Source of the DNA: a virus
Taxonomy: Duplodnaviria; Heunggongvirae; Uroviricota; Caudoviricetes
Length of the DNA: 64,000 nt
Direction: 5' to 3' (one strand)
Virus record (IMG/VR): IMGVR_UViG_3300017987_000047
Shown here: positions 25,208-61,355 of the stretch, in pieces
Layout: each line of letters opens with the position of its first letter
Numbering within the stretch: position 1 is the stretch's first letter
The notes under the pieces: model-generated
What the model saw: the letters and a program-made list of their open reading frames with translations, nothing else
Databases searched by the model: none
What the model was told of the DNA's origin: nothing
Translations under genes and position numbers: made by a program

Positions 25208-25804
25208 ATGGATTCGCTATTAACCCACAAAAATCCTGAGATACGGAAAATTGTAAAACAGGTTATAGTTCATAAAAGAAGAAGATTTTCTGTTGCGAGA
25301 AATAGACGAGTAACTCAAGATTTCCTTAATGCTATTATTAGACTTAACTATCCTTTAGTTCTTATGGGGGATACTTTGTTCGACCAAACAGGCTTAAAAG
25401 AAATTACTGCAGATATCATCTGCACAGGAGTTCTATCTTTTAAGAATTGCAAAGATTTTGAAAGAATCTCGGGGAATATAATCGCTGGGGGCTTGTTAGT
25501 TAAGGATTGCCCCCGGCTAAAAGAAATTACTGGAACATTTGAAGCTGATAAAGAATCTGCAATTATAAATTGTCCGAAATTAAAAGTCTTACCGAAAGTT
25601 CTTAATGGGGTTATCAAACTTAGGCTTGAAGAAGAGAATCAATTAAAAGAAGACCTTTTTGAAAATATTGGAAAGGTAATTAAGCAGACGCTAAGTCAAG
25701 CTGGATACAAAAACTTGGAGGAGCTTGATACCTATTCGAAGGAAATGCTCTCTTCCTACTATAATCTATACTTAACAAGTCGCATATCAATAGGAGACAT
25801 ATAA
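25208..25804 (+). CDS. N-terminal LTH-R-AK motif + LRR-like repeats
   Basis: MDSLLTHKNPEIRKIVK; LSFKNCKDFERI, LLVKDCPRLKEI, IINCPKLKVLP. Confidence 0.7.
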   Translation: MDSLLTHKNPEIRKIVKQVIVHKRRRFSVARNRRVTQDFLNAIIRLNYPLVLMGDTLFDQTGLKEITADIICTGVLSFKNCKDFERISGNIIAGGLLVKDCPRLKEITGTFEADKESAIINCPKLKVLPKVLNGVIKLRLEEENQLKEDLFENIGKVIKQTLSQAGYKNLEELDTYSKEMLSSYYNLYLTSRISIGDI

Positions 25805-26118
25805 TGGCTTATTCCCGTTGGTCAACTTCAGTCTGGTACGTTTATTGGAGAATCCCTGCCCCGATTTGCATCCATAAACATCAAGAAATCTTAGCTTGCC
25901 ACCATTCTGACAACGCAGACGAGGAGCCGCAGGAACTTTCTTTTTTAGACGTTGAGCAGTTTGTTAAAAAACCAAACTGGAATCTTTGGAAACAGGAATT
26001 AACGGATATTGAAAAAGACGAGCTAATTGAGCGGATGCAAGAATGGCTTAAGGACGTAGCGGAAAAATGGAAAAATAAGAAAAATAAAAAATATAACAAG
26101 AAAAAAATAAAAAGGTAA
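25804..26118 (+). CDS. hypothetical protein
   Basis: AGGAG SD; MAYSRWS..WYVYW. Confidence 0.7.
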   Translation: MAYSRWSTSVWYVYWRIPAPICIHKHQEILACHHSDNADEEPQELSFLDVEQFVKKPNWNLWKQELTDIEKDELIERMQEWLKDVAEKWKNKKNKKYNKKKIKR

Positions 26119-26136
26119 AAGCTTGGAGTCTGGAAG

Positions 26137-26604
26137 ATGAAAACCCAATATGTTGAATTCCAACAATTCGAACGGGAATGTGAAAGTTCTGTTCTTCTCA
26201 AGCTTTCGACCCGACAGCATTTTGTTAAATTTAAGGATCCACACGAATTAGCTTTTTTCTGGTATGAGTCTGGCGAGGGTGATGATGCGGAGGATGGCTA
26301 CGATGGTGCTGTTTATTTCGGAATTTATAACCCAAAAACCAAATTTAAAAAAATTGGGTATATTACAGAAAAGTTTTTAAGAGAAACTATTAAGGTGCGA
26401 GGAAAGAAATACTATATTGATAAAACAAGACAAGGCTTCGATTTTGTCGTGCTTAATATCTACAAATATTATTCGATATTTACACTTCAAATACTAGGGG
26501 TGCGGCTAAATGTAAAACCACCAAAAGCTCCAAGAATAACAGAATATTTAACTCATAAAAAAGAATCGATTAGGTTGGCGGCGAAACGAGTTTTAGAATC
26601 TTAA
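26137..26604 (+). CDS. hypothetical protein with C-terminal LTH-R-AK motif
   Basis: YLTHKKESIRLAAKRVLES-stop. Confidence 0.75.
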   Translation: MKTQYVEFQQFERECESSVLLKLSTRQHFVKFKDPHELAFFWYESGEGDDAEDGYDGAVYFGIYNPKTKFKKIGYITEKFLRETIKVRGKKYYIDKTRQGFDFVVLNIYKYYSIFTLQILGVRLNVKPPKAPRITEYLTHKKESIRLAAKRVLES

Positions 26605-26731
26605 AAACCTTCGAAGCTCAAAAGAATTTCCCCATATATTAAATAGGAGAAAAAATAACAAAGGAGTTGTTCTGGCCTAGCTTCTGAGTTTGGTTCGTTT
26701 TTTACCCCCATAGTTGAAAAGGAAAAAAGAG

Positions 26732-27532
26732 ATGCAAAACACCCATCTACTGATTATTGATCCTCAGCATGACTTCTGTGACCCCTCGGGTGCCCTGTTT
26801 GTTCCGGGTGCGGAAAAGGACATGGAACGTCTTGCAGCGTTTGTTGGCCGGGTGGGCGATAAGCTGTCCAAGATCCATGTGACGCTTGATAGCCATCACT
26901 ACGTCGACATCGCACACCCTGTCTTCTGGAAGGACTCTTCTGGAAAACATCCCGATCCTTTCACAATCATCTCCAAGGATGATGTGAAGAATGGGGTCTG
27001 GACAACTACAAAGCCGGGGTGGCACAAGAAGGCGCTTGCTTACGTCGAGCAGCTTGAGGCCAATAACAGGTATCTCCTTTGTGTCTGGCCTCCGCACTGC
27101 TTGATTGGGAGTCGAGGTTACGAAGTCGTTCCCGATTTGATGGATGCCCTTACAAAGTGGACGGATGACCACTTTGGCTTCATTGATTGGGTTGCGAAGG
27201 GGCATAACCCCTTCACCGAGCACTACTCTGGGGTTGCGGCGGAAGTGCCTGACCCGCAAGACCCAGCAACCCAGATCAATACCAATCTGGTCAAAACCCT
27301 CACGGATGCGGATGTCGTTCTGATTGCTGGCGAGGCTAGCAGCCATTGCCTCGCTAACACGGTACGAGACATCGCAAACAACTTCAATGACGACTCCTAC
27401 ATCCAGAAGCTTGTTCTTCTGGAGGACGCAACGAGCCCTGTTCCCTCCTTTGAGAATCTTACTGATGATTTCACCAAAGAGATGACTGGGCGGGGGATGC
27501 AGCTTTCTTCCACAACTGAGTGGATGAAATAA
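26732..27532 (+). CDS. nicotinamidase / isochorismatase-family cysteine hydrolase
   Basis: IIDPQHDF, TLDSH, WPPHC, KG, AGEASSHC. Confidence 0.85.
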   Translation: MQNTHLLIIDPQHDFCDPSGALFVPGAEKDMERLAAFVGRVGDKLSKIHVTLDSHHYVDIAHPVFWKDSSGKHPDPFTIISKDDVKNGVWTTTKPGWHKKALAYVEQLEANNRYLLCVWPPHCLIGSRGYEVVPDLMDALTKWTDDHFGFIDWVAKGHNPFTEHYSGVAAEVPDPQDPATQINTNLVKTLTDADVVLIAGEASSHCLANTVRDIANNFNDDSYIQKLVLLEDATSPVPSFENLTDDFTKEMTGRGMQLSSTTEWMK

Positions 27533-27575
27533 AAGGTTTCTTTCGGCAATTTCAACTCCAAACAAAGGAAGAAAA

Positions 27576-28301
27576 ATGGACACTGAAAGCCAGCCCCTGA
27601 TGGTCTCGAATTTCGGGTTCTCCGCAGTGAATGTCGATGACCTCGGCGCAACGGAATATACCCTCGTAGGAATCGCCTGTGATGTTAGCACAAGCGTTTC
27701 CGGTTTCCGCAAGGAAATGGAAGACTGCCTGAAGGAAATTGTCCGGGCATGTTATTCTAGCCCTCGGGCGGATAACTTAATGCTCCGAACTGTCTTCTTC
27801 AACAGCCGCCTTTCCGAGTTCCATGGCTTTAAGCCGTTGGGAAATCTTAACCCGGATGACTATGATGGAAGCCTCAGCCCAGGAGGGATGACGGCACTCT
27901 GCGATGCCACGGTGAACATCATCGAGTCCCTGGGTACCTATGGTAAAGATCTCGTTGAAAGCGATTTCGATACCAACGGTATTGTGATCGTCATTACCGA
28001 CGGGATGGACAACCATTCAACAAACACGGTCAACCAGGCAAAGGAAGCCCTGGCGAAGATTACCAAGGATGAAAACCTTGAAAGCATCCGAACAATCCTT
28101 GTCGGGGTGGTTCAGGATGACCAAATGATCAAGGATTACCTGGATGATTTCCAGGCTGAGGTCGGGTTTGACCAGTATGTCACGCTAGGAAGTGCCGACG
28201 CGAAGACATTGGCAAAGCTTGCTGACTTTGTTTCGAAATCGATCTCCGCCCAATCCCAGGCTTTGGGAACTGGCGGGCCTTCCCAGTCACTCAGCTTCTA
28301 A
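27576..28301 (+). CDS. vWA-domain protein (TerY/YegL-like)
   Basis: DVSTS MIDAS, GGMTALCDA, VITDG. Confidence 0.8.
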   Translation: MDTESQPLMVSNFGFSAVNVDDLGATEYTLVGIACDVSTSVSGFRKEMEDCLKEIVRACYSSPRADNLMLRTVFFNSRLSEFHGFKPLGNLNPDDYDGSLSPGGMTALCDATVNIIESLGTYGKDLVESDFDTNGIVIVITDGMDNHSTNTVNQAKEALAKITKDENLESIRTILVGVVQDDQMIKDYLDDFQAEVGFDQYVTLGSADAKTLAKLADFVSKSISAQSQALGTGGPSQSLSF

Positions 28302-28322
28302 GTCGCCCCGTCGCCGAATCAG

Positions 28323-28351
28323 AAAGGGGAGGGAAACCTCCCCTTTCTTTT
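28323..28351 (+). terminator. intrinsic terminator
   Basis: aaaggggagg-gaaa-cctcccctttctttt. Confidence 0.8.
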
Positions 28352-28370
28352 CCGCTGAAAAACATAAAAC

Positions 28371-29141
28371 ATGAATTCCGACTCTTATTTCGCCATTGGG
28401 CATAGTCACCATGTATGTGAAGACTATGCTTTTGCCGGGCCAACTGCATGTTCCAAAACCCCTATCGCAGTTGTCTCCGACGGGTGTTCAACCGCACCCA
28501 ATACGGATATCGGGTCCCGAATTCTCACACGGGCAATTTTGTTAAATTATCCTTTAAACCTATCAGAATCAATCCGGGGCGCCTACCAGGCGACTAAAAC
28601 CCTTGGTCTGACATTTGATTCTCTCTTCGCAACGATTTTAACGTTAGAGTTTACCCCCGAGAATCAAATTAAGGCGCAGGTTTCGGGGGATGGTGGGGTT
28701 ATTGCGAGAAAAAGAGAATCTCAAGAATTAGAAGTTTATTGGTTAAATTATTGTTCCAATGCCCCCGAGTACCTTGCTTACTTGCTTCACACCCCTTCAT
28801 ACAGTAGGTTCCTAGATTCTTTTGGGAATCAAAAAGCAGCTGAGATTACGACGCTGGGACCTGACGGAGAGGTTAAGAGCAGTTTTGCTGAATTCCCGGA
28901 GGATTTAGTTTATGAAAGGTACTTCGACCCAGCGGATTACGATCTCATTGCGGTAACATCTGATGGGGTTGATTCTTTTGCTGGCCTCGGGTATATTGAC
29001 GTTATTAAACGTATTATGTCTTTCAAAAATTATAAGGGCGAATTTGTTAAACGGAGAGTCAAACGATTCTTGAAAGAAATTGCAGCTGAAAAAATTAGGC
29101 ACGATGACGATGTTAGTCTTGCTGCGATTTATCTAAAGTAA
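28371..29141 (+). CDS. PP2C-like protein phosphatase (YegK-like)
   Basis: G.SH..CED, VSDGCS, GDG, TSDG, DDVS. Confidence 0.85.
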   Translation: MNSDSYFAIGHSHHVCEDYAFAGPTACSKTPIAVVSDGCSTAPNTDIGSRILTRAILLNYPLNLSESIRGAYQATKTLGLTFDSLFATILTLEFTPENQIKAQVSGDGGVIARKRESQELEVYWLNYCSNAPEYLAYLLHTPSYSRFLDSFGNQKAAEITTLGPDGEVKSSFAEFPEDLVYERYFDPADYDLIAVTSDGVDSFAGLGYIDVIKRIMSFKNYKGEFVKRRVKRFLKEIAAEKIRHDDDVSLAAIYLK

Positions 29142-29464
29142 TGAATATACTTGATAAACTTTTCAAAGTTATTGAGATTTCCCCTGGTGTTTCTGATAGG
29201 CCTTATTTCGTTTGGTTACACCCAACCAAAAAGATTTTTATTGAAATAGACTGTATCGCAGGGGAAATGGATTATAACTCCAGTGAGAATATATATTCCG
29301 AGTGGTATGCTGGTATAAAAGATTTCAAAAATTTTGGGAAAGATGTCGATGTCGAGTGTAAGCAAACTTTTTATTATGAAGAGGTTTCGTTTAAGGTGCT
29401 CCTAACACACGCTTGTCCTGAAACTAGAGCTTGGGCGAAAGAAAAGCTATGGGAATCAAAATAA
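29141..29464 (+). CDS. hypothetical protein with C-terminal LTH-R-AK motif
   Basis: LLTHACPETRAWAK. Confidence 0.7.
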   Translation: MNILDKLFKVIEISPGVSDRPYFVWLHPTKKIFIEIDCIAGEMDYNSSENIYSEWYAGIKDFKNFGKDVDVECKQTFYYEEVSFKVLLTHACPETRAWAKEKLWESK

Positions 29465-31113
29465 CCCTAAAAGGCCAAAACCTAGTCCTTACCGATAGAT
29501 ACTTCGTAGGGCAAGGTGGGGAAGGAAGCATCTATGCCAAAGGTAAAACTGCCTATAAGGTTTACCTTGATTCCAAGAAAATGATTCCCACAGGCAAAAT
29601 TGACGAGTTAGCCGTTATTTCAGATAAGAGGGTTATTAAGCCTGAAGATGTCATTCTTAAGCGGAATAAGCCTGTTGGCTATACAATGCGTTATGTTAAA
29701 AATACTTATGCATTATGTCAACTTTTTACTAAAGCTTTCCGTGATCGTAATTCCCTCTCAACCAATATCTGTTTAAGCCTTGCGCGTGGTATGCAAGACA
29801 CCATGCAGCATATTCACGAAAACGACGTTCTAGTTGTCGATGCAAACGAAATGAACTTTCTCGTTGCAAAGACATTTAAGGAAGTCTATTTCATTGATGT
29901 TGATAGTTACCAGACAAAAAGCTATCCTCCAACTGCTATTATGGAAAGTATTAGGGATCGGCACTCTAGTACCTTCAACGAAAACACTGATTGGTTTGCT
30001 TGGGCAGTAGTTACGTTCCAATTGCTGGTTGGCATCCATCCTTATAAAGGAAAGCATCCTTCTGTTAAAGGGCTTGATGATCGGATGACGAAGAATATTT
30101 CGATTTTCGATAAGCAAGTCCGCGTGCCAAAAGCATGCCTTTCTCCAGATGTCATACCCAAGGTTTTAAGAGACTGGTATTTTGATGTCTTTGAGAATGG
30201 GCAGCGTGGCGCTCCCCCTATCGATCTCAGCAAAGCAGTTCCTATTGTTGCGGCTACTATTTCCTATGTCAATTGGGATGCCTTTAAGGTTGAAGCAGAA
30301 TATACCTACGACTTAGAAGTCCAGGAGTATTTCAGGAAAAACCAAAAGGAATGTGTGGCTGGGGTGAAACAGGTTTGTTTAGATCGACGCCGTTATATAG
30401 ACTTCGAGAAACCGAGTCTTGGAATCTTCGGATCAAATGTATTAGCAGCAAACATTAAAGATGATAAGATAAATTTATTGAGTTTAACATACCAAAAACC
30501 TCTAAAAGCGCCCGAAATTAAGGCAGACAGCCTAATGAGCTACGATGGGCGGTTTTATGTTAAATCTGGCGAAAATCTCCTGGAATTAACATTCCAAGGT
30601 TCTGAGTCTAGCCCACTTGTGGTTTATCAAAAAATCGGGAATGTGATGGAGAATGCAACTCAACTCTTCCCAGGGGTTGCTATCCAAAGCATGCTTGGTT
30701 CTTACTTTGCTTCTGTTTTTCCTGCCCCAAATACTTGTAGCCAAACCCGCTTACCTGACCTTGATGGATATCGTATTCTCGACGCTAAGTACGATAAAAA
30801 TCTATTAATGGTTGTTGGGATAAAGAAAGGCGAGTATGACCGCTTTATCTTTAATCTAAAGGATGGTAAAGTAAAAGAAAGCCGTAAAGTTAAGAACGTT
30901 ATGTATTCTGGCCTTAACTTTACAGTATTAGATAAAGGAATTTGTATTTCCATCACGGAACAGGATAACATTGAAATTTTCCACCAAAATGCTTTAACAA
31001 AAATTAAGGCGATTACGGATAAGAAGATCCACGGTGGAATGCGTCTTACTTCTGATGGGAATAAAGTACTTTTCTTTGATAAGACTAAACTTCATAGTAT
31101 AACAATGAAATAA
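29449..31113 (+). CDS. Ser/Thr protein kinase (YegI-like) with beta-rich C-terminal domain
   Basis: GQGGEG, AYK, H...VVDANEMN, IDVDSYQ, DWFA..FQLLVGIHPY. Confidence 0.85.
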   Translation: MGIKITLKGQNLVLTDRYFVGQGGEGSIYAKGKTAYKVYLDSKKMIPTGKIDELAVISDKRVIKPEDVILKRNKPVGYTMRYVKNTYALCQLFTKAFRDRNSLSTNICLSLARGMQDTMQHIHENDVLVVDANEMNFLVAKTFKEVYFIDVDSYQTKSYPPTAIMESIRDRHSSTFNENTDWFAWAVVTFQLLVGIHPYKGKHPSVKGLDDRMTKNISIFDKQVRVPKACLSPDVIPKVLRDWYFDVFENGQRGAPPIDLSKAVPIVAATISYVNWDAFKVEAEYTYDLEVQEYFRKNQKECVAGVKQVCLDRRRYIDFEKPSLGIFGSNVLAANIKDDKINLLSLTYQKPLKAPEIKADSLMSYDGRFYVKSGENLLELTFQGSESSPLVVYQKIGNVMENATQLFPGVAIQSMLGSYFASVFPAPNTCSQTRLPDLDGYRILDAKYDKNLLMVVGIKKGEYDRFIFNLKDGKVKESRKVKNVMYSGLNFTVLDKGICISITEQDNIEIFHQNALTKIKAITDKKIHGGMRLTSDGNKVLFFDKTKLHSITMK

Positions 31114-31123
31114 CGGAGCAGCT

Positions 31124-31531
31124 ATGTCGATGCGGCCACCAAAAAGACCGGCAGAGTGTGTTTTTACTATTGAACTATATAGTGAAGCATGTAGAACGCC
31201 CGTCAAGAAGTTAATGGATGAAAGCTTAGATAAGCATGAATTTGCGTGCTTATTCAAAAAAGGGCTAGGGCCTTTCAGAGTTGACCTTACTCCCGAAGTA
31301 CCTAAGATAGCTCTCATGTATAAAAATTACCATGATGCACATGGGGTGTTTTGCCAAACGGATCATGGGAATTATTTTAGTAGGTGGGCTGCTGATTTTA
31401 TAGAAAACTTGCCCAAGCATTATTATAAAATCGCACATTTTTATGGGAATGAAGGTTGGGCTAAAAAACCCGAAGAAATAAAAGCCGTTGAATCCCTTGA
31501 AAATAAAGTAATTGAAATCCCAATGCCTTAG
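31124..31531 (+). CDS. hypothetical protein
   Basis: GGAG SD. Confidence 0.65.
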   Translation: MSMRPPKRPAECVFTIELYSEACRTPVKKLMDESLDKHEFACLFKKGLGPFRVDLTPEVPKIALMYKNYHDAHGVFCQTDHGNYFSRWAADFIENLPKHYYKIAHFYGNEGWAKKPEEIKAVESLENKVIEIPMP

Positions 31532-33112: not shown

Positions 33113-34027
33113 ATGCAAGAAACGTTAGCAGGAAAGTGGCCTTCCTTATCTGAAAAAGATAAGCAAGAGGAGCTTGAAAGGCTGCCTATAGAAACTCGTA
33201 TGTTACTGGTAGAGTTAGTTTCTTATATAAAAGTTGAGGCTCAAACACCTTCCCACCCTTATTTAGATTTCTTTGAAATTAAAGATATTCAATATACAAA
33301 AGACCTTTTCCAAGTTATATTCGGTGCTTCCATGTTGGATGTTAAAGGGGTTTGGAAAGCAAAAAACCCTTTTCAGCATTCTTTTATTGATATAAATGCT
33401 ATCGATAACTTTCTTATCGCTTGGCTTGACAAAAGCATCATATTCGACGCGATACTTTTATATAAATCAGGATTTCTAAAGGTCACCTTCAAGGAGGATA
33501 TAGAAAGACTTGATTTGTTTTTTAAAACTCCAGAAGGGAAATTCGCTTCAAAACATCTTCAATCGCTGGAAACATTAGCGCAACAAACCACTTCTCATTT
33601 TAAGGAGGTAGAATGCAAAAAGCTTGAAAGGCTTCGATTAGTTCTGAAACGCAGTAAAATAATAAGCGAGGAAGATAGGGAGGAGCTTGAAATAATTGCT
33701 TCTTTAGCCTTGGAAGGAATAGCTACTGCATATGTACCTATTAAGAATTTTGAAGCCGCCGCGTTAAAACGAGCTTTTAAGAATAAACGCCTTGCGTGGA
33801 AAACTTCAAAAGGGTTAATCTATAATTTAGAGTGTAGAAATCCAAAAACAAACCGGATCTTAAAGGGTAGTTGTATCCTTACCTTAAAGGGGTTTCGAAA
33901 GTTTAAAACTTTCTTAAGGTCTTGTTATGTTGTTGGGTGCCCTGACTGTACCCCAACGCTCACGCAGCGAGAGTGGGAAGAAGTAATCAGGGAAGAACAA
34001 AAAGAGGCTCGGGATGTTAACGGTTGA
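33113..34027 (+). CDS. hypothetical protein
   Basis: 304-aa ORF; C-terminal C..GCPDC. Confidence 0.7.
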   Translation: MQETLAGKWPSLSEKDKQEELERLPIETRMLLVELVSYIKVEAQTPSHPYLDFFEIKDIQYTKDLFQVIFGASMLDVKGVWKAKNPFQHSFIDINAIDNFLIAWLDKSIIFDAILLYKSGFLKVTFKEDIERLDLFFKTPEGKFASKHLQSLETLAQQTTSHFKEVECKKLERLRLVLKRSKIISEEDREELEIIASLALEGIATAYVPIKNFEAAALKRAFKNKRLAWKTSKGLIYNLECRNPKTNRILKGSCILTLKGFRKFKTFLRSCYVVGCPDCTPTLTQREWEEVIREEQKEARDVNG

Positions 34028-34811
34028 AACCCTTAGTTACATTGATGAAACATGCCAAAGAGTCTCCCTAGACCAATTAGAAGACGGCGACTTAGTCGTT
34101 GCTTTTAATGTCGGTTTTAGTTCGGCTTTGGTCGAGTTAGCTACCGTATCAGAAATATACCTGGAGTCAGAAAAGGCAGAAATAAGAAAAGGGTTATTTC
34201 GCTTTGCTGATTCACACCCTATTTGGGTCGGGGGAGAAACCACGCTACTTCGGATTTTCGACTCACAGCTTTTCTTTTGCGAGCCTTTTACTTTTATTAA
34301 AGAACTTTGCGAAAAGGCCAGCCTAAGATTTTTAACAGAGCCCCAGTTTAGGGACCGTAATAGGTACAAAACAACTTTCTTATATAATTTTATCTTAGCT
34401 CATTTCCGGTATGCCCAAGAACCTCTTTTTGAAGATTTGTTAGTTAAACAACTCTTGACAAGTGAAAATGCTGCCACCAGAAAATTCTCTAAGGAATACC
34501 TAAAACTTCGTTCCAAGTTTAACTCCTTTAAGGGCAAATCCTATCTAGTTAGGGATCCTGATGGTGAAAAGGTAATACTTGTATGTTTTGATAAACATGA
34601 AACAACATCCTCGGCTATATGTCTAAGAACAAACTACAATTGGCTTCCCTATAGAGACGATGATTATGTAATGAATGTGCGGATAGCGATTTTAGATGAG
34701 GATATGCTTGATAAGTATAACCGAATCTGGGAAGAAGTTTCCCTAACAACTTTTTTAACGAACAAAGATGCAAGAATTCGGAAATTTGCTAAAGAACACT
34801 TAGAAAGGTAA
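34014..34811 (+). CDS. hypothetical protein with two LTH-R-AK motifs
   Basis: LLTSENAATRKFSK and FLTNKDARIRKFAK. Confidence 0.75.
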   Translation: MLTVETLSYIDETCQRVSLDQLEDGDLVVAFNVGFSSALVELATVSEIYLESEKAEIRKGLFRFADSHPIWVGGETTLLRIFDSQLFFCEPFTFIKELCEKASLRFLTEPQFRDRNRYKTTFLYNFILAHFRYAQEPLFEDLLVKQLLTSENAATRKFSKEYLKLRSKFNSFKGKSYLVRDPDGEKVILVCFDKHETTSSAICLRTNYNWLPYRDDDYVMNVRIAILDEDMLDKYNRIWEEVSLTTFLTNKDARIRKFAKEHLER

Positions 34812-39483: not shown

Positions 39484-39912
39484 ATGAAATCCCCAAACGA
39501 GGATTTTTGGGTTTGGCGAACAAGCCCAAGTTTTGGTAACGGGACTTTTCATTTTCATAGCCTACCGACTCCAGAAGAAATGCTACGCGCATTTTTACTC
39601 CACGTAGAAGAGGAAAGTAATAGGAAAAATTATATCCTAACAAATATAAGAATGACGGCCACGCACTATTTTTATTCGCTGATTACTCAGCAGGCTGATG
39701 CAGATTTCTCTTATTATTTGCGATTGGGCGAATTCCTAAATTATGATCGAATCTTCCCTGATGAGTTTAATGCTCTTCCCCCTAAAGGAACCCTTCTCAC
39801 CTCTTCCCAAAACCTAGTTCGTAAAATTGGCAAAGCTTTGATCCAAGGGGATAAACAAAAACTTGTACGGCTAGGGGTTCAAGAGGAGTTTTTCAAATGG
39901 CTAAAAGAATAG
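39484..39912 (+). CDS. hypothetical protein with C-terminal LTH-R-AK motif
   Basis: LLTSSQNLVRKIGK. Confidence 0.7.
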   Translation: MKSPNEDFWVWRTSPSFGNGTFHFHSLPTPEEMLRAFLLHVEEESNRKNYILTNIRMTATHYFYSLITQQADADFSYYLRLGEFLNYDRIFPDEFNALPPKGTLLTSSQNLVRKIGKALIQGDKQKLVRLGVQEEFFKWLKE

Positions 39913-40319
39913 AAAACTTTGAAGAGACCACTTTTAAAGGAATTAGCAAATACCTAACTCATAGCGATCCCCGGGTTAGGAAAATAGTAAAAGATACATT
40001 AGAGATCCCGATGACTTCTGTCGGGGTAACCCAAAAACGATTAGATTATCTTCAAAAGCACTACAAAAACGCTGGCAAAGCCTATGAGGAAATCACAGAA
40101 AACCCTTCCTCGAGAAAAGAACTCACAGAAGCTTTTAATTACCTTATGGCTGTTGGGAATCTTCTTACGGATTTTCTAATATTCGAAAAAATTCGTCTTG
40201 ATCAAGTTTCTATGGAATTTAAGGAACAAAGGTTAAAGGACGAAAAGAAGTCTAATTATTTGATCCTATTAATTACTACAATCGGTATCCTGAGCATCTT
40301 TCTACTGGAGTTACTATAA
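39897..40319 (+). CDS. N-terminal LTH-R-AK motif + C-terminal TM helix
   Basis: YLTHSDPRVRKIVK; hydrophobic tail. Confidence 0.7.
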   Translation: MAKRIENFEETTFKGISKYLTHSDPRVRKIVKDTLEIPMTSVGVTQKRLDYLQKHYKNAGKAYEEITENPSSRKELTEAFNYLMAVGNLLTDFLIFEKIRLDQVSMEFKEQRLKDEKKSNYLILLITTIGILSIFLLELL

Positions 40320-41428: not shown

Positions 41429-41820
41429 TTAAAGTATTTTTTGAGATGATGGGGGATGACCTTTTTCTTTTCGATGATTTAACAACCCAGAAAGAAATTG
41501 AACTTTTCTTAGCAGCAACTGCAATAAAATACGTCACGGAGAAAAACATAAAACGGATGGAGCTAAGACCCGCAATGAAAATTGAGGTAGACCCTGACAT
41601 CTCTTTGTCTAATGACTTTGTGACTAACGATCCCGACCTTGAATTTTTTACGGGGGAAAACCTTGAAGATTGTTATGTTTTCGAATGCTTAAAAGCCTGC
41701 GGGGGTTGGAAGTACGCAGTTATAATCAAAAAGGTAGAGGATCCAATCGAAGTGCAGGCTGAGAAGTATCTCACACACGAATCCCCTATCATCCGGAAAA
41801 TGGCTAAGGATTTAGGATGA
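41425..41820 (+). CDS. LTH-R-AK motif protein, tandem paralog B
   Basis: AVIIKKVEDPI...KYLTHESPIIRKMAK. Confidence 0.75.
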   Translation: MIKVFFEMMGDDLFLFDDLTTQKEIELFLAATAIKYVTEKNIKRMELRPAMKIEVDPDISLSNDFVTNDPDLEFFTGENLEDCYVFECLKACGGWKYAVIIKKVEDPIEVQAEKYLTHESPIIRKMAKDLG

Positions 41821-42314
41821 ATAAAGTTTTTGTACAAGCACAACAATTCGAGTACGACTTTTATGACAAATCCTTTGATGCCTTCCAGCCTAGGATACTT
41901 TGCCTTTCTCCAGAGGACGCAAAAAAAGAAGTAATAGCCTTGGATTGGCTGCTTATCGAAGAAGAAGAAAAGCTGTGGGTTGGTTTTTATAACCCAGAAA
42001 AGTTTAAGAAACAAGGCCGAATTACACAACCCTTCCTTAAAAAACTTATTAAATACCAGAAAAAAGAGAAAAAATTCTATATAGGAAAAGAAGTTTTTGA
42101 CCACGTTTTTCTAAGTATCGGCAGGGAGGAGGAATGGGATGGCAAGACGTCTAAGATGCAAGAATTTATTGATGCCCTGGGAATTAATTTTGACCCAGGC
42201 ATCCAAAAGGGTGTAAAAAGACCCCAAGAATATTTAACTCACAAAGACCTAACTATAAGAAGGTTTGCGAAGGAAGTAATCGGAAACTTACCAAGTATCT
42301 CAGGAGGCATTTAA
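41817..42314 (+). CDS. hypothetical protein with C-terminal LTH-R-AK motif
   Basis: YLTHKDLTIRRFAK. Confidence 0.75.
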   Translation: MNKVFVQAQQFEYDFYDKSFDAFQPRILCLSPEDAKKEVIALDWLLIEEEEKLWVGFYNPEKFKKQGRITQPFLKKLIKYQKKEKKFYIGKEVFDHVFLSIGREEEWDGKTSKMQEFIDALGINFDPGIQKGVKRPQEYLTHKDLTIRRFAKEVIGNLPSISGGI

Positions 42315-42654: not shown

Positions 42655-42675
42655 CAATCGTTGCCTTCTAGTCTA

Positions 42676-42957
42676 ATGTATAAAAGTTATCTTACATCAA
42701 AAGACCCAGACCTCCGAAACCTCGCAAAAGAAATGCTGGAAGAAGAAAAGAAAGAAAAGGCTCGTAGGCTTGGACTTAGAAAAAAGAAAAACCAGGGGTT
42801 TCTTTTATTCTTTGTCGTTTGTTATGTTGCTTTAGGGCTACTAATGCTCGCGGGTAACATTTTTACGGGGATACGGGAAGGTGGGTGGTATGGCACTTTA
42901 GGTTCCATCCTATTTATTCTCCCTTGGGCTGTACTCGGATTTAAGGAAGGGCCATGA
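42676..42957 (+). CDS. N-terminal LTH-R-AK motif + two TM helices
   Basis: YLTSKDPDLRNLAK; hydrophobic C-terminal half. Confidence 0.7.
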   Translation: MYKSYLTSKDPDLRNLAKEMLEEEKKEKARRLGLRKKKNQGFLLFFVVCYVALGLLMLAGNIFTGIREGGWYGTLGSILFILPWAVLGFKEGP

Positions 42958-55674: not shown

Positions 55675-55945
55675 TACAGAATTGAAAAAATACATTGAAA
55701 AAACGAACATCAGGCTTGCCTTAGGTTACGAAGAAACTATTTTCTTTAATTATGGTTTGTTATTGGGCCTTTTCCATGCTGGGAATATTAACAAATCACA
55801 ATATAAGATGTTCAAAAAAGTCTATGCCAACGAAGAGAACGGAGATCTTAGCTATACAATTGACACTAAAGGAAAACTAATTAAGAATTAACGTATAAAG
55901 GGTCGTGGAAACCCTCTCAAATCCCAAACCATGGAAAATAGCAAA

Positions 55946-56404
55946 ATGAAAAAGCTTAGTTTGATTCTGTTTCTGCTTCTAATTTCTTGCGGGTTTCACT
56001 ACGACTACCACCAGGAAATCCAGATCGACCAACTGTTCTTGGAGGGGGCTAACTTACGTATTGTTCATATGGAAGGGGATCTTCTCCAGACCACGCTTAT
56101 TAGTGGGTGGGGGAATGAACACCACCCCAGGATAAAGTCTGAATTTGATGCTTGCCTAGAAACTATTCCTGCTTCCGTTTTGGAGAAGTTCTCTCAACCT
56201 CCGGCATATTTCGGGTTTATTATCTTAAAGGACCTTGCTGAGGATCAAAAACCTTATGCTCTCATATTACATTTTAGTGGGGAAGGAAAACGCAACTATG
56301 CGGAGATACATCTTCGGGAGGAAGATGCTTTAGAGGGAGGGGTTGCTGGTTATGGTAAATTCGGCTGTGCTCATCTCTCTGAAATTGACCTAGGGGAACA
56401 GTAG
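55946..56404 (+). CDS. putative lipoprotein
   Basis: MKKLSLILFLLLISC lipobox. Confidence 0.65.
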   Translation: MKKLSLILFLLLISCGFHYDYHQEIQIDQLFLEGANLRIVHMEGDLLQTTLISGWGNEHHPRIKSEFDACLETIPASVLEKFSQPPAYFGFIILKDLAEDQKPYALILHFSGEGKRNYAEIHLREEDALEGGVAGYGKFGCAHLSEIDLGEQ

Positions 56405-56909
56405 TCTCCAATAAACACGGAAGGTAAGAAAATGTCTTTGAACAGGGAGAAGCGCCTACCAAAAGAGGTAGGGATAGAGGTTGTGAAAGCCTTTGTGGGT
56501 ACTGGCACAAGGTTTGAGTTTAGTGCCACTGATAGCCAAGCCATCCTTAAGTATAATTCTGGGGATGAATTGTTGTTACGCCATGCTATTGGTAAGACTG
56601 GTTATCGTGATCCTGATGATCCTTCGGATAGATAGGGGGTAACATGCTCTCAAAAACTATCAAGCTTGACCTAGGAAACTTCTCAAAAACTTCTTTAGAC
56701 TCTCAATTCCCTAAAAGAAGAAAAATTCGCTACCTTAGGATTAATCATAATACTTATAGAAGTTTCTTGCTTTTCTTAGGGCCTGAGCTTGACCTTATAT
56801 GTTTACCTCAAAAATATAGGAGAGGGCGTGTTGCACATTATAGGGGAGCGAAGCTTCAGATCGAGAATAATCTTTCTGATGGTGAAATCAATTTCATAGT
56901 ATAAAATTC

Positions 56910-57167
56910 ATGACAAAACTAACAAAGTGTGAAGATTCGCTAATGTTCTTTTGCCCTGGTTGTGGTTCCTACCACTCCTTTCGGGTACCACAATGGAAAT
57001 GGGATGGGGATATGGAGAAACCTACTTTCTCGCCCTCTCTGCTAATCAATAAAAACATTCCGGCGCAAAGATGCCATTTATTTATTGAGAATGGGAAGCT
57101 TCGATTTTTAGAAGATTGTTTCCATCATTTAGCGGGTCAAACTATCGATATGGAAGAAGAGGATTAA
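56910..57167 (+). CDS. DUF6527-like Zn-binding protein
   Basis: CPGC..H..W.WDG...PTFSPSL..CH.FI..G..FL.DC.H.LAGQT. Confidence 0.75.
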   Translation: MTKLTKCEDSLMFFCPGCGSYHSFRVPQWKWDGDMEKPTFSPSLLINKNIPAQRCHLFIENGKLRFLEDCFHHLAGQTIDMEEED

Positions 57168-57393
57168 ATATGTTAAACGAACTGATCGCTGGATTAATTC
57201 TTGGAGTTCTTTGCGTAGGGGTTATCCTACATTTTCTTTGGATGTTATTTTGGTCTAAGGATGCTCGAGCTCTTCGTCGTAAGGCTCAAAGAACTCGTCG
57301 GGCTGAACAACTCTTGGATGAAAAACGGTATCGCGACGCTTTGGTTGAGCTTGGGGTCCTAAACCCCCAAGATTAACTTTTAGGGAGTTAGCA

Positions 57394-58014
57394 ATGTTCG
57401 ACAAATCAAAAGCACATTTACATCTCGACCCTTTTCTTATTCCTACTGAAATCTGTGATTCAGATAACGAATTGATTTTCTGCAAGGCTAAGGATATCAT
57501 AGGGAGGACAAAGGATATCAAAGTTGCGGCAAACCATATTTGTGAGTGGATGCGCGAAGAGATCACATATACTTTCGATTTTTGCTCTGTTAAAGCTAGT
57601 CAAACGCTTTTGAAACGGGAAGGTATGTGTACGAATAAGGCTAACTTGCAGATAGCTTTATTAAGAAGTTTGGGTATACCTGCTGGTTATGGTATTGTTC
57701 ATATCACTAAACAAGTCTTCGAGCGGGACGTAGTGCCTGAGATATATGAAAAGATTTCAGAGCCTACTACGCATGTCTTTGCTTGTGTTTGGGATCCTGA
57801 GTTTGATCGTTTTTGCTATCATGATTCTACGGAGAGGGGAAAGGATTTTCTAGATTTCATGGTAGTTTTGCCTACGGGGGAAATTAGGTACCAGGATCGT
57901 TGGTTAAGGGGAGGTATCCACATTCACTCTAACTTAGATCATTTATTCAAAATGCCCTCGAGATGGTCTCGGGAAGAGTTTGAGAAGCAAAACATTGAAT
58001 ATCGGAAGGGGTAG
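57394..58014 (+). CDS. transglutaminase-like cysteine protease/ligase
   Basis: G.CTNKANL..ALLRSLGIPA, HVF, D triad. Confidence 0.8.
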   Translation: MFDKSKAHLHLDPFLIPTEICDSDNELIFCKAKDIIGRTKDIKVAANHICEWMREEITYTFDFCSVKASQTLLKREGMCTNKANLQIALLRSLGIPAGYGIVHITKQVFERDVVPEIYEKISEPTTHVFACVWDPEFDRFCYHDSTERGKDFLDFMVVLPTGEIRYQDRWLRGGIHIHSNLDHLFKMPSRWSREEFEKQNIEYRKG

Positions 58015-58254
58015 TGAAAAAGATAAGTTTTTGAAAACAGAGTTGCTTTAAGGAAGGTAGAATGAAGTATTATTATTTTGTAAAAGCTTACGAAACTCAT
58101 ACAGAGTGGGTTGTATCTACTCGAAGTCCTTTTTTGCTTATGGCCCAGGATAGAAACAGCAGTAAAACTCCTTATCATATTATTTTTTCTGTAGAGATAT
58201 CTAAAAAAGAATATGAAGCTCTTCGTTCTATAAGGTAGGCTTCAAGGAAAATGA

Positions 58255-58839
58255 ATGGCATTTACCTGCATTAAAATAATTGATAGCCAGGTTAGAATCC
58301 AACATGGCTTTCGGATTCTTCTTTTTTACCAGAACTCCCAAGGCTGGAAGAAACTTTTCGTTAAACTTGACGAGAAAGTGCAATCTTGGGTATATTTAGA
58401 GTTTCAAGCTGGAATCTGCCAACTATTAACTCACTCCTTACCTGAAGTGCGGCAACTAGCAAAGAAGATAAACCAAAGGGGCTTTGAATATTTTGATGCC
58501 TTGTGGGATTTACGCTTTGAATTAGGCCCTCAATGCTATACTCAATTCAAAGCAAGGGGGGATACTCTTCTTTATTACGTGAGGCATAAACAGGAGAAGA
58601 TCTTTTTTGACCCATATTTAGGCCCAGCTTTGACAGGACCGACAGGACTGACAGGTTTGACAGGACCGACAGGACCGACAGGTTTGACACCAACAGGCCG
58701 TCTCAGCTCAAAAACACCTAATCTTTCTCCTCAAATTTTAAAACCCCAGAAAAAACAAAGCCCCTGTCTTCAAAACATTGGCCCTGCAGCCCCTTCACGA
58801 AGTCGGGGAATATGGCAAAAGATATTCCGGAGAAGATAG
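58255..58839 (+). CDS. LTH-R-AK motif protein with short collagen-like G-X-T repeat
   Basis: LLTHSLPEVRQLAK; 9-bp repeats at 58630-58698 (TGPTGLTGLTGPTGPTGLT). Confidence 0.7.
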   Translation: MAFTCIKIIDSQVRIQHGFRILLFYQNSQGWKKLFVKLDEKVQSWVYLEFQAGICQLLTHSLPEVRQLAKKINQRGFEYFDALWDLRFELGPQCYTQFKARGDTLLYYVRHKQEKIFFDPYLGPALTGPTGLTGLTGPTGPTGLTPTGRLSSKTPNLSPQILKPQKKQSPCLQNIGPAAPSRSRGIWQKIFRRR

Positions 58840-58881
58840 TTTCTTGTACTTTGTATATAAAACCAAGGTGAAGCTGAAGCA

Positions 58882-59283
58882 GTGGAAAAACTGATCACGC
58901 CAACAACGATGTACTTACTAACTTTTAAACAAAGCCCCTGTCTTTCCTTGACGGGTTGGGATGAAATCCTTCACTTCTTTAAGGATTATCCGACAAAGGA
59001 CGAAATACGGATTTGTTTTCTCAAGGCATTGAAAGACTACATTCTCTATTATGATATGGATCCAAACAAGGTTGGGATTCGGGAAGATGCTTTTCGTAAT
59101 TCTTTCACTTTAATTAATAAAGACAAAACTGAGAGAGTTTCAGAAGAAGGGGAGATTGTTCTTTTCGGGGATGTTCGCTTCTCAGTTGAAAAGGTTAAAA
59201 CGGAAACATCGAGAAAGTTGGAATCATTTCTCACAGATGATTTTGCTTGTATTCGTAAATTCGTTAAGGGGCTAAAAGATTAG
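58882..59283 (+). CDS. hypothetical protein with C-terminal motif variant
   Basis: FLTDDFACIRKFVK. Confidence 0.7.
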   Translation: MEKLITPTTMYLLTFKQSPCLSLTGWDEILHFFKDYPTKDEIRICFLKALKDYILYYDMDPNKVGIREDAFRNSFTLINKDKTERVSEEGEIVLFGDVRFSVEKVKTETSRKLESFLTDDFACIRKFVKGLKD

Positions 59284-59374
59284 TGAAGATCGAAGCAAAT
59301 GTAAAGTGTAATATAAATTAGGTTAAATGGGTTGCCTTCAAAAACCTAACACACACATACAAAAGGAAAAAATC

Positions 59375-59776
59375 ATGTCAAACTCAGGTAAAACTCCCTA
59401 CGAAATCCGCTTAGAACTACTAAAAATGTCCAAAGATCTCCTCATGGAGGAATTCTATGCTCATCGGGATATCGAAGAGAGAAATTGGACTGCCAGAATG
59501 GACGACTATCATTATTATAGGGAACATGGAGCTGAAGTAGAACGAGCAAAATACCCATTCCCGAAAGACCTTGTTATCCCGAAAGCCCCAACAGAAGCTG
59601 AGATTATCGCTAGGGCTAGGACCTTAAATGAATTTATTGGTGGGGATGGAAAAAACGTACCAAAGGATGAGAACGTAACAAGGGACGAGAATAGGGATGC
59701 TGGAAGAGGAAGAGGCGGCCAAGGGAGAGGTGGACAGGGAAGCTGTGGTCAAGGAAGATGGAGAAATCCTAGATAA
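59375..59776 (+). CDS. phage-type hypothetical protein with RGG-rich tail
   Basis: GKTPYEIRLELLKM.KD...P...EII.RA..LNEFI; GRGRGGQGRGG. Confidence 0.7.
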   Translation: MSNSGKTPYEIRLELLKMSKDLLMEEFYAHRDIEERNWTARMDDYHYYREHGAEVERAKYPFPKDLVIPKAPTEAEIIARARTLNEFIGGDGKNVPKDENVTRDENRDAGRGRGGQGRGGQGSCGQGRWRNPR

Positions 59777-59794
59777 GCTTCAAGGAAGAGTTTT

Positions 59795-59831
59795 AAAATA
59801 ACTACCTAATCATTTGGGTAGTTATTTTTTT
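59795..59831 (+). terminator. intrinsic terminator
   Basis: aaaataactaccta / tgggtagttatttt + T-run. Confidence 0.75.
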
Positions 59832-59860
59832 GCTTTCTTCTCGTAAAACTAAAAATCTTT

Positions 59861-59887
59861 CGTTGGTCAACTTGGGTCGCTTATATA
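59861..59887 (+). promoter_or_regulatory. putative phage promoter, CG-N5-CAA-N11-TATATA
   Basis: cg-ttggt-caa-cttgggtcgct-tatata. Confidence 0.55.
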
Positions 59888-59945
59888 TTAGGTAGGAAAA
59901 ATGCTTTTTAGGAGTCAAGGCTGAAAGGAAACACAAATAGTTCAC

Positions 59946-60494
59946 ATGAAATATAAAACAAACTATCTCATAAGATTTGAATTCCTACTATTTAACCAAA
60001 ACTTTTATTTTTCTAGGTTTCCGAAACAAAGGGATAAACTAGAAGCCGTTTTAACCTTCTGTAATTATCTATCCGGGGTATGGGATAAAAAAATACTTTC
60101 TTTTAATCTTAAGGACTCCAACTTAGAATCTTTTCTTAGCACCCCCACGGTTGGAGCTGGGAAAGTTTACCTAAGACGGCTAGTGCCACCTTTTTATAAT
60201 TATTCTACCAAGATTTCTTGGTCGTTAGAGCTTCGACAAGTTAGCACCGACTCTAGGAACCTTAATCGCCCAGCTTCCTTAAAAACTTTTTTAACCGTTG
60301 GGTCCGCTGAGCTGCGAAAACTTGTTAAATCTTGTATAAGGGGGACGACGATGAAATGTAAAGAGAACCCAAACCAAAGTTATTGGAATCTTCGGTTTAC
60401 CCAAACGAAGCCAAGAGAACAAGGTTGGGGTAAGGATAAGAAAAGTTGGGCGGCAGCCCCTATCCGTAAAAAGGTAAAAAACTTATGTACTTAA
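59946..60494 (+). CDS. hypothetical protein with motif variant
   Basis: FLTVGSAELRKLVK. Confidence 0.7.
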   Translation: MKYKTNYLIRFEFLLFNQNFYFSRFPKQRDKLEAVLTFCNYLSGVWDKKILSFNLKDSNLESFLSTPTVGAGKVYLRRLVPPFYNYSTKISWSLELRQVSTDSRNLNRPASLKTFLTVGSAELRKLVKSCIRGTTMKCKENPNQSYWNLRFTQTKPREQGWGKDKKSWAAAPIRKKVKNLCT

Positions 60495-60519
60495 ACACCT
60501 GTTAGAAAGGGGATAGAAA

Positions 60520-60786
60520 ATGGATCTTATTGAAGCGGTACGTTGGGCATGGGAGCATGATATTTTTCCTTTAGTGAATCGGGATCAAATGTTTGGCGAA
60601 GTTGAAGGTACTGGCAACTGCAGTATCGCTGTTAAAGTGGTGGGGTGCTCTACTGAAAACGCACATGATAAATTCGTTGAGTTTGTGCAGGAAGCCAAAC
60701 GGAGATGGGAAGAACACGAACTTCGTTACGGCAATAAACCCACACGACATCTTGTTATTGGCGACGATTTCAAGATCGGGGATTAA
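60520..60786 (+). CDS. hypothetical protein
   Basis: purine-rich SD, operonic. Confidence 0.6.
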   Translation: MDLIEAVRWAWEHDIFPLVNRDQMFGEVEGTGNCSIAVKVVGCSTENAHDKFVEFVQEAKRRWEEHELRYGNKPTRHLVIGDDFKIGD

Positions 60787-60797
60787 ACCAGCTTGCA

Positions 60798-61355
60798 ATG
60801 AATAAGCATCTCTCAAAATACTTAACAGCGGATAATCCTCTTTTAAGAAACTGGGTTAGGGAGAGAATTCATAGGACTGACCAGAGATACGAAGTTATCG
60901 AAGATGTTATTCATTATATTCCTAAAGAGAATCAGTATGTTTGGGGATGGGTGGATATTCAATTTTTTCGGGTTAGAGAAGAAAAAAAGCAAAAAGTTAT
61001 CTATTGTGATTTCTTGAAATGTAATAATTGTCTTTTAGCTTCTCTTCCGGCTCTTCCGGTTTGTAGGAAATTGCACTGTGATAGTAACCGGCTAACTTCC
61101 CTCCCGGAGCTTCCTGTTTGTGAGATTTTAATCTGCGACTACAACCAATTAACTCTCCTTCCGGCTCTTCCGGCTTGTAGTATTTTGCAATGTGATAGTA
61201 ACCGGCTAACTTCCCTCCCGGAGCTTCCTGTTTGTGTAGAGTTGCATTGCACGGGCAATAAATTAATGAAACTTCCAAAACTTCCCTCGATTAACGAAGA
61301 TCTCTTGTTCTATGGGAATAACCCTGGTTATGGTACTCCGGGGTTTTACAAATGA
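60798..61355 (+). CDS. N-terminal LTH-R-AK motif + bacterial-type LRR protein
   Basis: YLTADNPLLRNWVR; 19-aa LTSLPELP.C..L.C..N repeats; 46 nt identical at 61077 and 61191. Confidence 0.8.
   Translation: MNKHLSKYLTADNPLLRNWVRERIHRTDQRYEVIEDVIHYIPKENQYVWGWVDIQFFRVREEKKQKVIYCDFLKCNNCLLASLPALPVCRKLHCDSNRLTSLPELPVCEILICDYNQLTLLPALPACSILQCDSNRLTSLPELPVCVELHCTGNKLMKLPKLPSINEDLLFYGNNPGYGTPGFYK

Follow-up and report, generated by a model that had tools for sequence, protein, structure and literature searches.

Why would two different classes of leucine-rich repeat (LRR) protein in one phage begin with the same short tag? The two proteins are encoded by ORFs 25208-25804 and 60798-61355 (hereafter 25208 and 60798) of a 64,000-nucleotide stretch of phage DNA (the window), and each starts with the motif L-T-x5-[ILV]-R-x2-A-K. 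The first-pass annotation had pointed to this shared start, and the statistics bear it out. The called plus-strand proteins of the window contain 25 copies of the motif, against 0.3 expected and a maximum of 3 in residue shuffles; about a quarter of the called ORFs carry it. An HMM built from 22 tags of other proteins scored 25208 at 27.7 bits (its own tag excluded from the HMM) and 60798 at 13.4 bits, a weak score that nonetheless reaches significance within the window; the same HMM recognizes the ortholog of 25208 and the paralogs of 60798 (18-22 bits). We favor reading the tag as a handle by which client proteins are addressed or docked, rather than as an F-box-type adaptor box.

Is the tag a property of the protein or of the DNA? 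The copies are 47% identical to one another at the nucleotide level, and all synonymous codons occur, with L written by 5, T by 4, and R by 6 different codons. Because the synonymous codons are all used, selection on the tag acts at the protein level. We therefore rejected the idea that repeated DNA or chance accounts for the tag and that the "LRRs" are low-complexity sequence: copy number, codon use, and nucleotide divergence all speak against it, as do the retention of the tag by orthologs and paralogs on other contigs, a confident LRR model, and strong YopM/SspH matches. We give this idea practically no chance.

The tag takes different positions in its carriers: 4 copies are N-terminal, ~14 lie near the C terminus, and ~7 are internal. 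When individual motif slots were left free, T was recovered in 25 of 25 copies and R in 25 of 26. The best-conserved positions include T, R, and K, plus L and A, and the conserved T, R, and K hint at a recognition surface. The conserved Arg is structural in canonical HEAT repeats, so R need not belong to a binding surface. From positions -4 to +14 the only helix breaker is the Pro of the turn, and the residues that follow the tag show no significant basicity. Judged from its sequence, the tag is a portable, autonomous module, fused to two unrelated LRR classes and kept by protein-level selection.

How are the two LRR proteins built? The features of the first are as follows.

25208..25804, plus strand: P0001, 198 aa: N-terminal tag, basic linker, short LRR-like solenoid with Cys in its units, and helical C-terminal region
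25217..25267, plus strand: full-strength tag, residues 4-20, LLTHKNPEIRKIVKQVI (tag HMM, ortholog identity)
25268..25339, plus strand: basic linker, residues 21-44 (ortholog comparison; pLDDT <50)
25340..25612, plus strand: 3-4 LRR-like units of 20-23 aa, C-x2-L-x2-I-x-G..., residues ~45-135 (AF2 strands, phmmer, PDB, Atlas)
25613..25801, plus strand: helical C-terminal region, residues 136-198, which the ortholog also has in conserved form

The protein begins with MDSLLTHKNPEIRKIVK, and residues 1-25 are 72% identical to those of its ortholog P0050. Within the linker, only 1 of the 13 residues from 26 to 38 is identical. Tag and repeats are thus retained in the ortholog while the intervening linker is not, a pattern of sequence conservation that fits a tethered handle. 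Assignment of the repeats draws on several weak signals. No Pfam LRR model matched 25208 at threshold; phmmer retrieved 93 multi-repeat proteins, some with sub-threshold Pfam LRR matches; the best PDB match was 4oju, a "hypothetical leucine rich repeat protein" (E 1.5e-3); and ESM Atlas structural neighbors were LRR proteins (TM 0.48-0.56). The single-sequence AF2 model is poor overall (pLDDT 48.7) and its Foldseek matches are meaningless, although the repeat region is modeled as beta strands (pLDDT 60-76). The weak scores lend moderate support to an LRR of the Cys-containing or BspA-like kind.

The second protein is more clearly defined.

60798..61355, plus strand: P0002, 185 aa, with the tag hairpin, a beta N-cap region, five 19-aa YopM/IpaH-type LRRs, and a short tail
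60804..60869, plus strand: tag hairpin, residues 3-24, helices 3-10 and 14-23 (AF2, tag HMM, family conservation)
60870..61007, plus strand: family-specific beta-rich region, residues 25-70, from the hairpin to the first LRR (family conservation, AF2, start of the YopM/SspH alignment)
61008..61292, plus strand: five 19-residue LRR units, xxLxCxxNxLxxLPxLPxC, residues 71-165 (57-bp period, AF2, Foldseek, family profile)
61044..61266, plus strand: two tandem copies, 85% identical, of a 114-bp unit that spans two LRRs

Its tag, which has KYLTADNPLLRNWVR at residues 7-21, is a diverged copy, with A for H and VR for AK. The repeat unit is exactly 19 aa, matched by a DNA period of 57 and by AF2 strands 19 residues apart, and the 85% identity of the tandem copies marks a recent repeat expansion. 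Structure prediction, proposed for both proteins by the first-pass annotation, was confident for this one alone (pLDDT 89.3, pTM 0.85). The top Foldseek matches are SspH1, IpaH (IpaH2.5 and IpaH1.4), and YopM, and the family profile matches YopM at E 8e-41 and SspH2 at 4e-32; NCBIfam models of SspH2 and SlrP match the LRR region only, far below their cut-offs. Profile and model together firmly support the LRR of 60798 as homologous to the YopM/IpaH/SspH type. The ORF ends 20 residues past the last LRR, and Pfam NEL (PF14496) gave no match at E up to 1. Between the helical hairpin (residues 3-23) and the first LRR lies a 45-residue beta region; the YopM and SspH alignments begin only at family profile position 70, and residues 25-70 are probably an N-cap or a set of degenerate first repeats. 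When 25208 and 60798 were compared with hhalign, only the N-terminal tags aligned, in register, so the two repeat classes are unrelated. The earlier observation that two LRR classes carry the tag is confirmed, the LRR being firmly supported in 60798 and moderately in 25208.

Does the LRR part vary on a constant base? There are about five copies of the 60798 family on the 384-kb contig and more in related metagenomic phage fragments; a search of deposited phage records (n = 50,697) returned only two weak matches. Family members share a constant 70-residue N-module, the best-conserved part of which is the tag hairpin (11 of 24 positions invariant). The number of LRRs ranges from 2 to ~10, two Cys per unit are conserved, and entropy is highest at unit positions 2, 4, 6, and 7, which lie on the concave face. 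Here the proposal of a variable domain on a constant box describes the family well. In one related phage fragment, a tag-LRR gene is retained together with an adjoining gene that has a C-terminal tag. The architecture, the LRR homology, the protein-level conservation of the tag, and the modular variation of the LRRs are established by these comparisons.

Could the hairpin simply be part of the LRR fold? It would then be an N-cap, end-cap, or folding nucleus, spread by paralogy and recombination and recognized by no shared partner. Within the N-module of 60798 the hairpin is modeled confidently (AF2 pLDDT 91-96) and runs into the next segment with no variable linker, as an intramolecular cap might, and it has family-specific invariant residues (H4, Y8, W19, and V20). 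Helical N-caps are usual for YopM and internalin LRRs, where they nucleate folding (PMC3986869), and some tag carriers are indeed paralogs (e.g., 26137 and 41817). In sequence, the 60798 hairpin matches neither the YopM cap nor the SspH cap. Only 13 of the 48 LRR relatives, however, have the N-module, which was found in none of the longer relatives inspected; it follows that the LRR fold does not need the hairpin. In 25208, moreover, an unconserved linker separates tag from repeats, and the motif also occurs at C termini and internal sites of otherwise dissimilar proteins, membrane-anchored ones included. When the search was reversed, the best nonfamily matches in the window to an HMM of the 60798 N-module were tag carriers.

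The shape of the tag bears on the same issue, because its conserved pattern matches the structural signature of HEAT-type hairpins. The tag resembles a single HEAT unit: its helix-turn-helix hairpin follows L-L-x-x-x-[DN]-P-x-[IV]-R-x-x-A, and the two AF2 helices of the 60798 tag fit a helix A-turn-helix B unit. In the PDB, the tag profile best matched designed helical-repeat proteins; no score was reported for Pfam HEAT models against the tag. Unlike HEAT repeats, the tag is single at a protein end rather than part of a tandem array (only 34014-34811 has two), and its invariant T and frequent H and K are absent from the HEAT consensus. An invariant polar T, with R nearly so, sits poorly with a purely structural role, which we consider unlikely overall. 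In 60798, where the hairpin is built into the N-module, family conservation and the model suggest that it may also help to cap the solenoid.

What do the other tag carriers do? Two of the four N-terminal carriers are the LRR proteins and the other two have a C-terminal membrane anchor; one neighbor of each LRR gene is a carrier as well.

39897..40319, plus strand: third protein with the tag at its N terminus; residues 119-140, toward the C terminus, are transmembrane-like
42661..42957, plus strand: fourth protein with the tag at its N terminus, followed by hydrophobic transmembrane-like stretches (residues 44-71 and beyond)
24219..25139, plus strand: upstream neighbor of 25208, a nucleotidyltransferase (PolyA_pol head domain) whose tag is internal, at residue 229
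61352..61780, plus strand: downstream neighbor of 60798, an orphan with a C-terminal tag

Recognizable binder domains are present in only 2 of the 25 carriers in the window; the rest are orphans, the one nucleotidyltransferase, and the two membrane-anchored proteins. With so few binders, and with an enzyme and membrane proteins among the carriers, an address or docking label on clients is likelier than a substrate-adaptor box. This bears directly on the F-box-like adaptor logic that the first-pass annotation had read into the two proteins, which is borne out only in part. Taken strictly, that logic would have the tag bind a catalytic hub (e.g., a protease, modifying enzyme, or ligase-like machine) and make the tag-LRR proteins interchangeable receptors for host targets. 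The joining of a constant handle to a variable binder is real and occurs in both LRR classes and in about five paralogs; the 60798 repeats are homologous to the domain with which IpaH, SspH, and SlrP recognize their substrates; and one bacterial relative of the 25208 repeat has a near-threshold NEL match. Neither protein, on the other hand, has an F-box, SOCS-box, NEL, or other catalytic domain, and a scan of the larger window proteins for a hub found no Pfam HEAT, F-box, or NEL domain and no hub candidate. The strict form is, in our judgment, decidedly improbable. We rate just as low the proposal that a hub of the phage or its host uses the lone hairpin as its docking box and that the tag-LRR proteins, as interchangeable receptors, deliver host (e.g., defense) proteins to it; such a counterpart of F-box/cullin or poxvirus ankyrin-PRANC systems would be built from a single HEAT-type unit.

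A handle might also work with no hub at all, if tags self-associated, their hairpins stacking or bundling so that carriers assembled in a factory or condensate, or if they bound a nonprotein ligand such as nucleic acid or membrane, and so concentrated the LRR proteins there. A single hairpin of the HEAT type leaves its stacking faces unsatisfied, one protein (34014-34811) bears two tags, some carriers are membrane-anchored, and the conserved T, H, R, and K may be phosphate-contacting residues, for which they are typical. The lack of significant basicity after the tag goes against such a role, which we hold to be very unlikely.

How, then, might the two LRR proteins work? We give an even chance to their being small, soluble, cytoplasmic addressed binders whose tag is a docking or address handle for a shared partner. 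The N-terminal 17-22 residues of both are the phage-wide lone helix-turn-helix tag, and the repeat domain would be the variable target-binding part. One putative partner would recognize every carrier through a common handle, which would sit on whichever end of the protein is free in the cytoplasm. That would make the LRR proteins clients—much as YopM combines a delivery signal with an LRR scaffold—and not dedicated substrate receptors of an F-box-type machine. We infer binding of the tag to this partner, and of the LRRs to proteins of the host or the phage. Among the carriers, it is in the tag-LRR proteins that the part beyond the tag has a recognizable function, namely, binding another protein, and their paralog series, with its constant handle and variable binder, offers the most practical entry to the partner of the tag.

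How do these proteins compare with known systems? F-box-LRR proteins (FBXL/Skp2 and Ralstonia GALA) and poxvirus ankyrin-PRANC proteins likewise join a short constant box to a variable repeat binder, with paralogs in one genome. The tag differs in having ~20 residues and two helices, against ~45 residues and three helices in the F-box, and neither 25208 nor 60798 matched an F-box family (PF00646/PF12937) in Pfam at E up to 1. Nearly all members of F-box families bear interaction domains, whereas most tag carriers are not binder domains, and no Skp1-like hub is known here. The NEL-type E3 ligases IpaH, SspH, and SlrP share the homologous LRR; 60798, however, has no NEL domain or catalytic Cys module, and its constant module is an N-terminal two-helix hairpin, whereas NEL is C-terminal. 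Short address labels on diverse cargo, such as the T4 capsid-targeting sequence, the MIX markers of type VI effectors, and the C-terminal sorting domain of the T9SS, are, like the tag, conserved elements on many unrelated proteins, repeat-type effectors included. The tag, by contrast, may stand at either end or internally, is also found on membrane-anchored proteins, and gives no sign of being cleaved, packaged, or secreted.

Yersinia YopM is a type III effector that has nothing besides an N-terminal delivery signal, a helical cap, and LRRs of 20-22 residues. LRRs of this class repeat a unit of about 20 residues with the consensus LxxLxVxxNxLxxLPxLPxx, which builds a solenoid of beta strand and extended chain. 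YopM is close to 60798 in LRR class (Foldseek rmsd ~2 A, 38% identity, 113 columns), in small size without a catalytic domain, in having N-terminal helices before the LRRs, and in a repeat number that differs between isoforms, as it does within the 60798 family. The 60798 unit has 19 residues instead of 20, with two conserved Cys, and the first 70 residues of the family have no YopM counterpart; the N-terminal element is a tag found on ~25 unrelated phage proteins, not a type III secretion signal. Because the producer is a phage of a bacterium, the targets of 60798 are not eukaryotic. LRRs of the YopM/IpaH type come mostly from type III effectors and cell-surface proteins; this finding puts them inside an uncultured huge phage (384-kb contig) and lets one ask whether huge phages use modular addressing or adaptors in a way comparable to eukaryotic viruses and secreted bacterial effectors.

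Do the two leucine-rich repeat (LRR) proteins of the window share an N-terminal element? ORF 25208-25804 (198 aa; the 25208 protein) starts with MDSLLTHKNPEIRKIVK, and ORF 60798-61355 (185 aa; the 60798 protein) starts with MNKHLSKYLTADNPLLRNWVR. We built a hidden Markov model (HMM) of the tag—the short phage-wide motif L-T-x5-[ILV]-R-x2-A-K—on 22 copies from other proteins; it scored 27.7 bits on the 25208 protein and 24.9 bits on its ortholog P0050. The 60798 protein scored 13.4 bits, low because of H-to-A and AK-to-VR replacements, and its paralogs and orthologs scored 18-22 bits. In the reverse search, with an HMM of residues 1-69 of the 60798 family, the best nonfamily matches in the window were tag carriers. 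When the 25208 and 60798 families were compared by hhalign, the tags fell into register and nothing else aligned confidently. The first-pass annotation's double occurrence of a tag-plus-LRR architecture, in two different LRR classes, is upheld by these comparisons; the proteins belong to two unrelated repeat classes with one N-terminal element in common.

Is the tag itself more than a coincidence or a DNA repeat? Searching the called + strand proteins of the window with the pattern L-[TS]-x5-h-R-x2-h-[KRAV] yielded 25 copies, vs. 0.3 in residue shuffles of the same proteins (shuffle maximum of 3). For the invariant-like L, T, and R, five, four, and six different codons are used, respectively, and the copies are on average 47% identical to one another in nucleotide sequence. 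Therefore, the tag is not a DNA-level repeat, and the shuffles rule out chance matching; it is a genuine element that acts at the level of the protein. When the T slot was allowed to vary, T was still found in 25 of 25 copies, and R, treated in the same way, in 25 of 26. A Pro stands at +4 from the tag T in 11/25 copies, and the zone from -4 to +14 is otherwise free of Pro and Gly except for Gly once at +2, twice at +12, and once at +14, a pattern that fits a short helix-turn-helix. Accordingly placed helices (residues 3-10 and 14-23) appear in the AF2 model of the 60798 protein. "Single HEAT-like unit" is a good description of the tag rather than a family assignment, because designed helical-repeat proteins are the top PDB matches of the tag profile and the Pfam HEAT models gave no match. 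We also considered a flexible Pro/Gly linker ahead of the tag and a basic tail behind it; neither enrichment was significant, and both ideas were dropped.

Which proteins carry the tag, and do they behave as F-box-like adaptors, as first proposed, with the tag as hub-binding box and the LRR as target binder? Only 2 of the 25 carriers are recognizable binders. The remainder are orphans without a Pfam match, one nucleotidyltransferase, and two proteins with transmembrane-like segments; apart from the nucleotidyltransferase, no named domain was found in carriers with Pfam, PHROG, NCBIfam, or PADLOC. Some carriers are related to each other, since the C-terminally tagged orphans 26137-26604 and 41817-42314 are mutual paralogs over much of their length (common sequence ...YNP..KFKK.G.IT..FL...IK...K.YI.K...). 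The 34014-34811 protein has two good copies about 100 residues apart (residues 144-164 and 244-264). Four carriers are tagged N-terminally: the two LRR proteins and two membrane proteins.

39897-40319, + strand: N-terminal tag carrier with hydrophobic transmembrane-like segment(s) after the tag (Kyte-Doolittle)
42661-42957, + strand: N-terminal tag carrier with hydrophobic transmembrane-like segment(s) after the tag (Kyte-Doolittle)

The post-tag segments of these two are strongly hydrophobic (Kyte-Doolittle 19-residue mean of 2.6); therefore, the tag also occurs on membrane-anchored proteins. In both, the C-terminal part is the anchor, and the tag seems to occupy the protein end that is free in the cytoplasm. 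Most copies of the tag lie internally or at the C-terminus of proteins that have no LRR, which for the tag in general disfavors the possibility that its helix is merely an LRR N-cap.

The adaptor proposal is partly supported: the design at its heart, a constant handle joined to a variable binder, is real. The strict adaptor, however, is quite unlikely: besides the scarcity of binders among carriers, the two LRR proteins contain no F-box, SOCS-box, or catalytic domain (Pfam, NCBIfam, and PADLOC), and no HEAT, F-box, or NEL domain (NEL being the C-terminal catalytic domain of IpaH/SspH-type ligases), nor any recognizable hub, turned up when the larger proteins of the window were scanned with Pfam.

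How is the tag joined to the repeats? A word-index search with the 25208 protein returned only itself. An exhaustive search recovered one full-length ortholog, P0050 (51% identity), and 93 multi-repeat proteins matching residues ~45-145 in several places each, some with sub-threshold Pfam LRR matches (LRR_EndoS and LRR_RPS2) and one also with a near-threshold NEL match. The best solved relative is 4oju, a "hypothetical leucine rich repeat protein" (E 1.5e-3), and the ESM Atlas structural neighbors are LRR proteins (TM 0.48-0.56). Of the two structure predictions suggested at first pass, that of the 25208 protein was poor. The single-sequence AF2 model does have beta strands with a ~20-residue period at pLDDT 60-76, but its Foldseek matches were meaningless. 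With moderate confidence, we take the protein to fold into a short LRR-like solenoid with three to four turns. Identity to P0050 is 72% over residues 1-25, 8% over residues 26-38, and ~55% over the repeats. Because the linker (26-38) between tag and repeats is unconserved, the tag would be tethered rather than packed as an integral cap, and the N-cap reading is disfavored for this protein.

The 60798 protein gave a confident LRR model from its family alignment (pLDDT 89.3, pTM 0.85): residues 3-23 form the hairpin, 32-34 and 46-53 are beta strands, and LRR strands follow from 69-74 on, the later ones exactly 19 residues apart (91-93, 110-112, 129-131, and 148-150). In structural comparison, it came closest to the LRR domains of SspH1, IpaH2.5, IpaH1.4, SspH2, and YopM. 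The family profile matches YopM (E 8e-41) and SspH2 (4e-32) from profile position 70 on only; nothing in these proteins corresponds to the first 70 residues. No NEL domain was found in the 60798 protein (Pfam and NCBIfam). The repeat unit is xxLxCxxNxLxxLPxLPxC (56 units), with entropy peaks at positions 2, 4, 6, and 7, which are the ones exposed on the strand of the concave face. Members have 2 to about 10 repeats, and a two-repeat 114-bp unit is duplicated in the 60798 gene (85% identity). In 61008-61292 and in members P0003-P0016 (L001:254-1099), the unit spans exactly 19 residues and contains two conserved cysteines; the YopM unit, described as one of the shortest LRRs known (PMC3986869), is one residue longer, at 20.

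It is in this family that the hairpin may serve as an N-cap. Conservation in the family is highest in the hairpin, where 11 of 24 positions are invariant; it adds family-specific invariants (H4, Y8, W19, and V20) and in the model is integrated into the N-module—the first ~70 residues—at pLDDT 91-96. LRR folding can be nucleated by helical caps (PMC3986869). For the LRR fold in general, the reading is disfavored because most relatives lack the N-module: only 13 of 48 relatives found by word-index search contain all of it. A purely structural cap is unlikely.

The best 120 longer LRR relatives include Bacteroidota T9SS-sorted surface proteins, SLH proteins, and NEL ligases; no fused tag-LRR form (e.g., with a catalytic domain) was seen among them, and the three inspected lack the tag. 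The nearest cellular relatives (among P0157-P0276) are mostly Bacteroidota T9SS-sorted surface proteins with 45-53% identity over the repeats, a weak hint of the phage host or of the LRR-module source.

What kind of genome carries these genes? The window (40% G+C, nearly all genes on the + strand, seven tRNA genes) covers a non-structural part of the genome of a very large uncultured phage; the contig recorded for its proteins has 384,251 bp. Three relatives with the whole N-module (P0004, P0005, and P0016) and one member of the P0012 cluster (P0156) are placed by their contig records on that contig, outside the window; therefore, the phage would have about five copies of the family. On a metagenomic fragment from a related phage, one gene encodes a 281-aa member with ~10 repeats, adjoining a gene with a C-terminal tag. 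Megablast of 24 kb of the window found no match in deposited phages, and the viral contig collection contained neither the 60798 LRR family nor a window-derived exact 43-mer. Two nucleotidyltransferase-like paralogs are present: 24219-25139 (PolyA_pol head domain, E 1.1e-5), with a good internal tag, and 12259-13158, with a degenerate one only. Accessory enzymes (17888-19003, 22023-22676, 28371-31113, 6139-7380, and 14119-15360) include an RlaP-type RNA-repair nucleotidyltransferase, an RNA ligase, a PP2C phosphatase adjoining a weak protein-kinase match, and a DUF2201 metallopeptidase/VWA protein; a 413-aa protein looks by eye like a MoxR-type ATPase, yet has no Pfam match. Because tRNA-Leu(CAA) and tRNA-Arg(TCG) (21190-21351) overlap the 5' part of mechanical ORF 21197-21898, its real start lies downstream of the called one.

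What, then, might the handle do? Our favored reading, to which we give about as much credence as doubt, is that the LRR proteins are tag-addressed binders with a putative shared partner. Self-association or ligand binding by the tag, with no hub involved, is very unlikely. The handle is new. Literature searches on LRRs in huge phages and on a HEAT-type targeting tag yielded nothing relevant. The range of carriers fits an address or docking label, shared by many clients, better than it fits a substrate-receptor box. Tag carriers read as addressed clients would resemble type III effectors such as YopM, which combine a delivery signal with an LRR.
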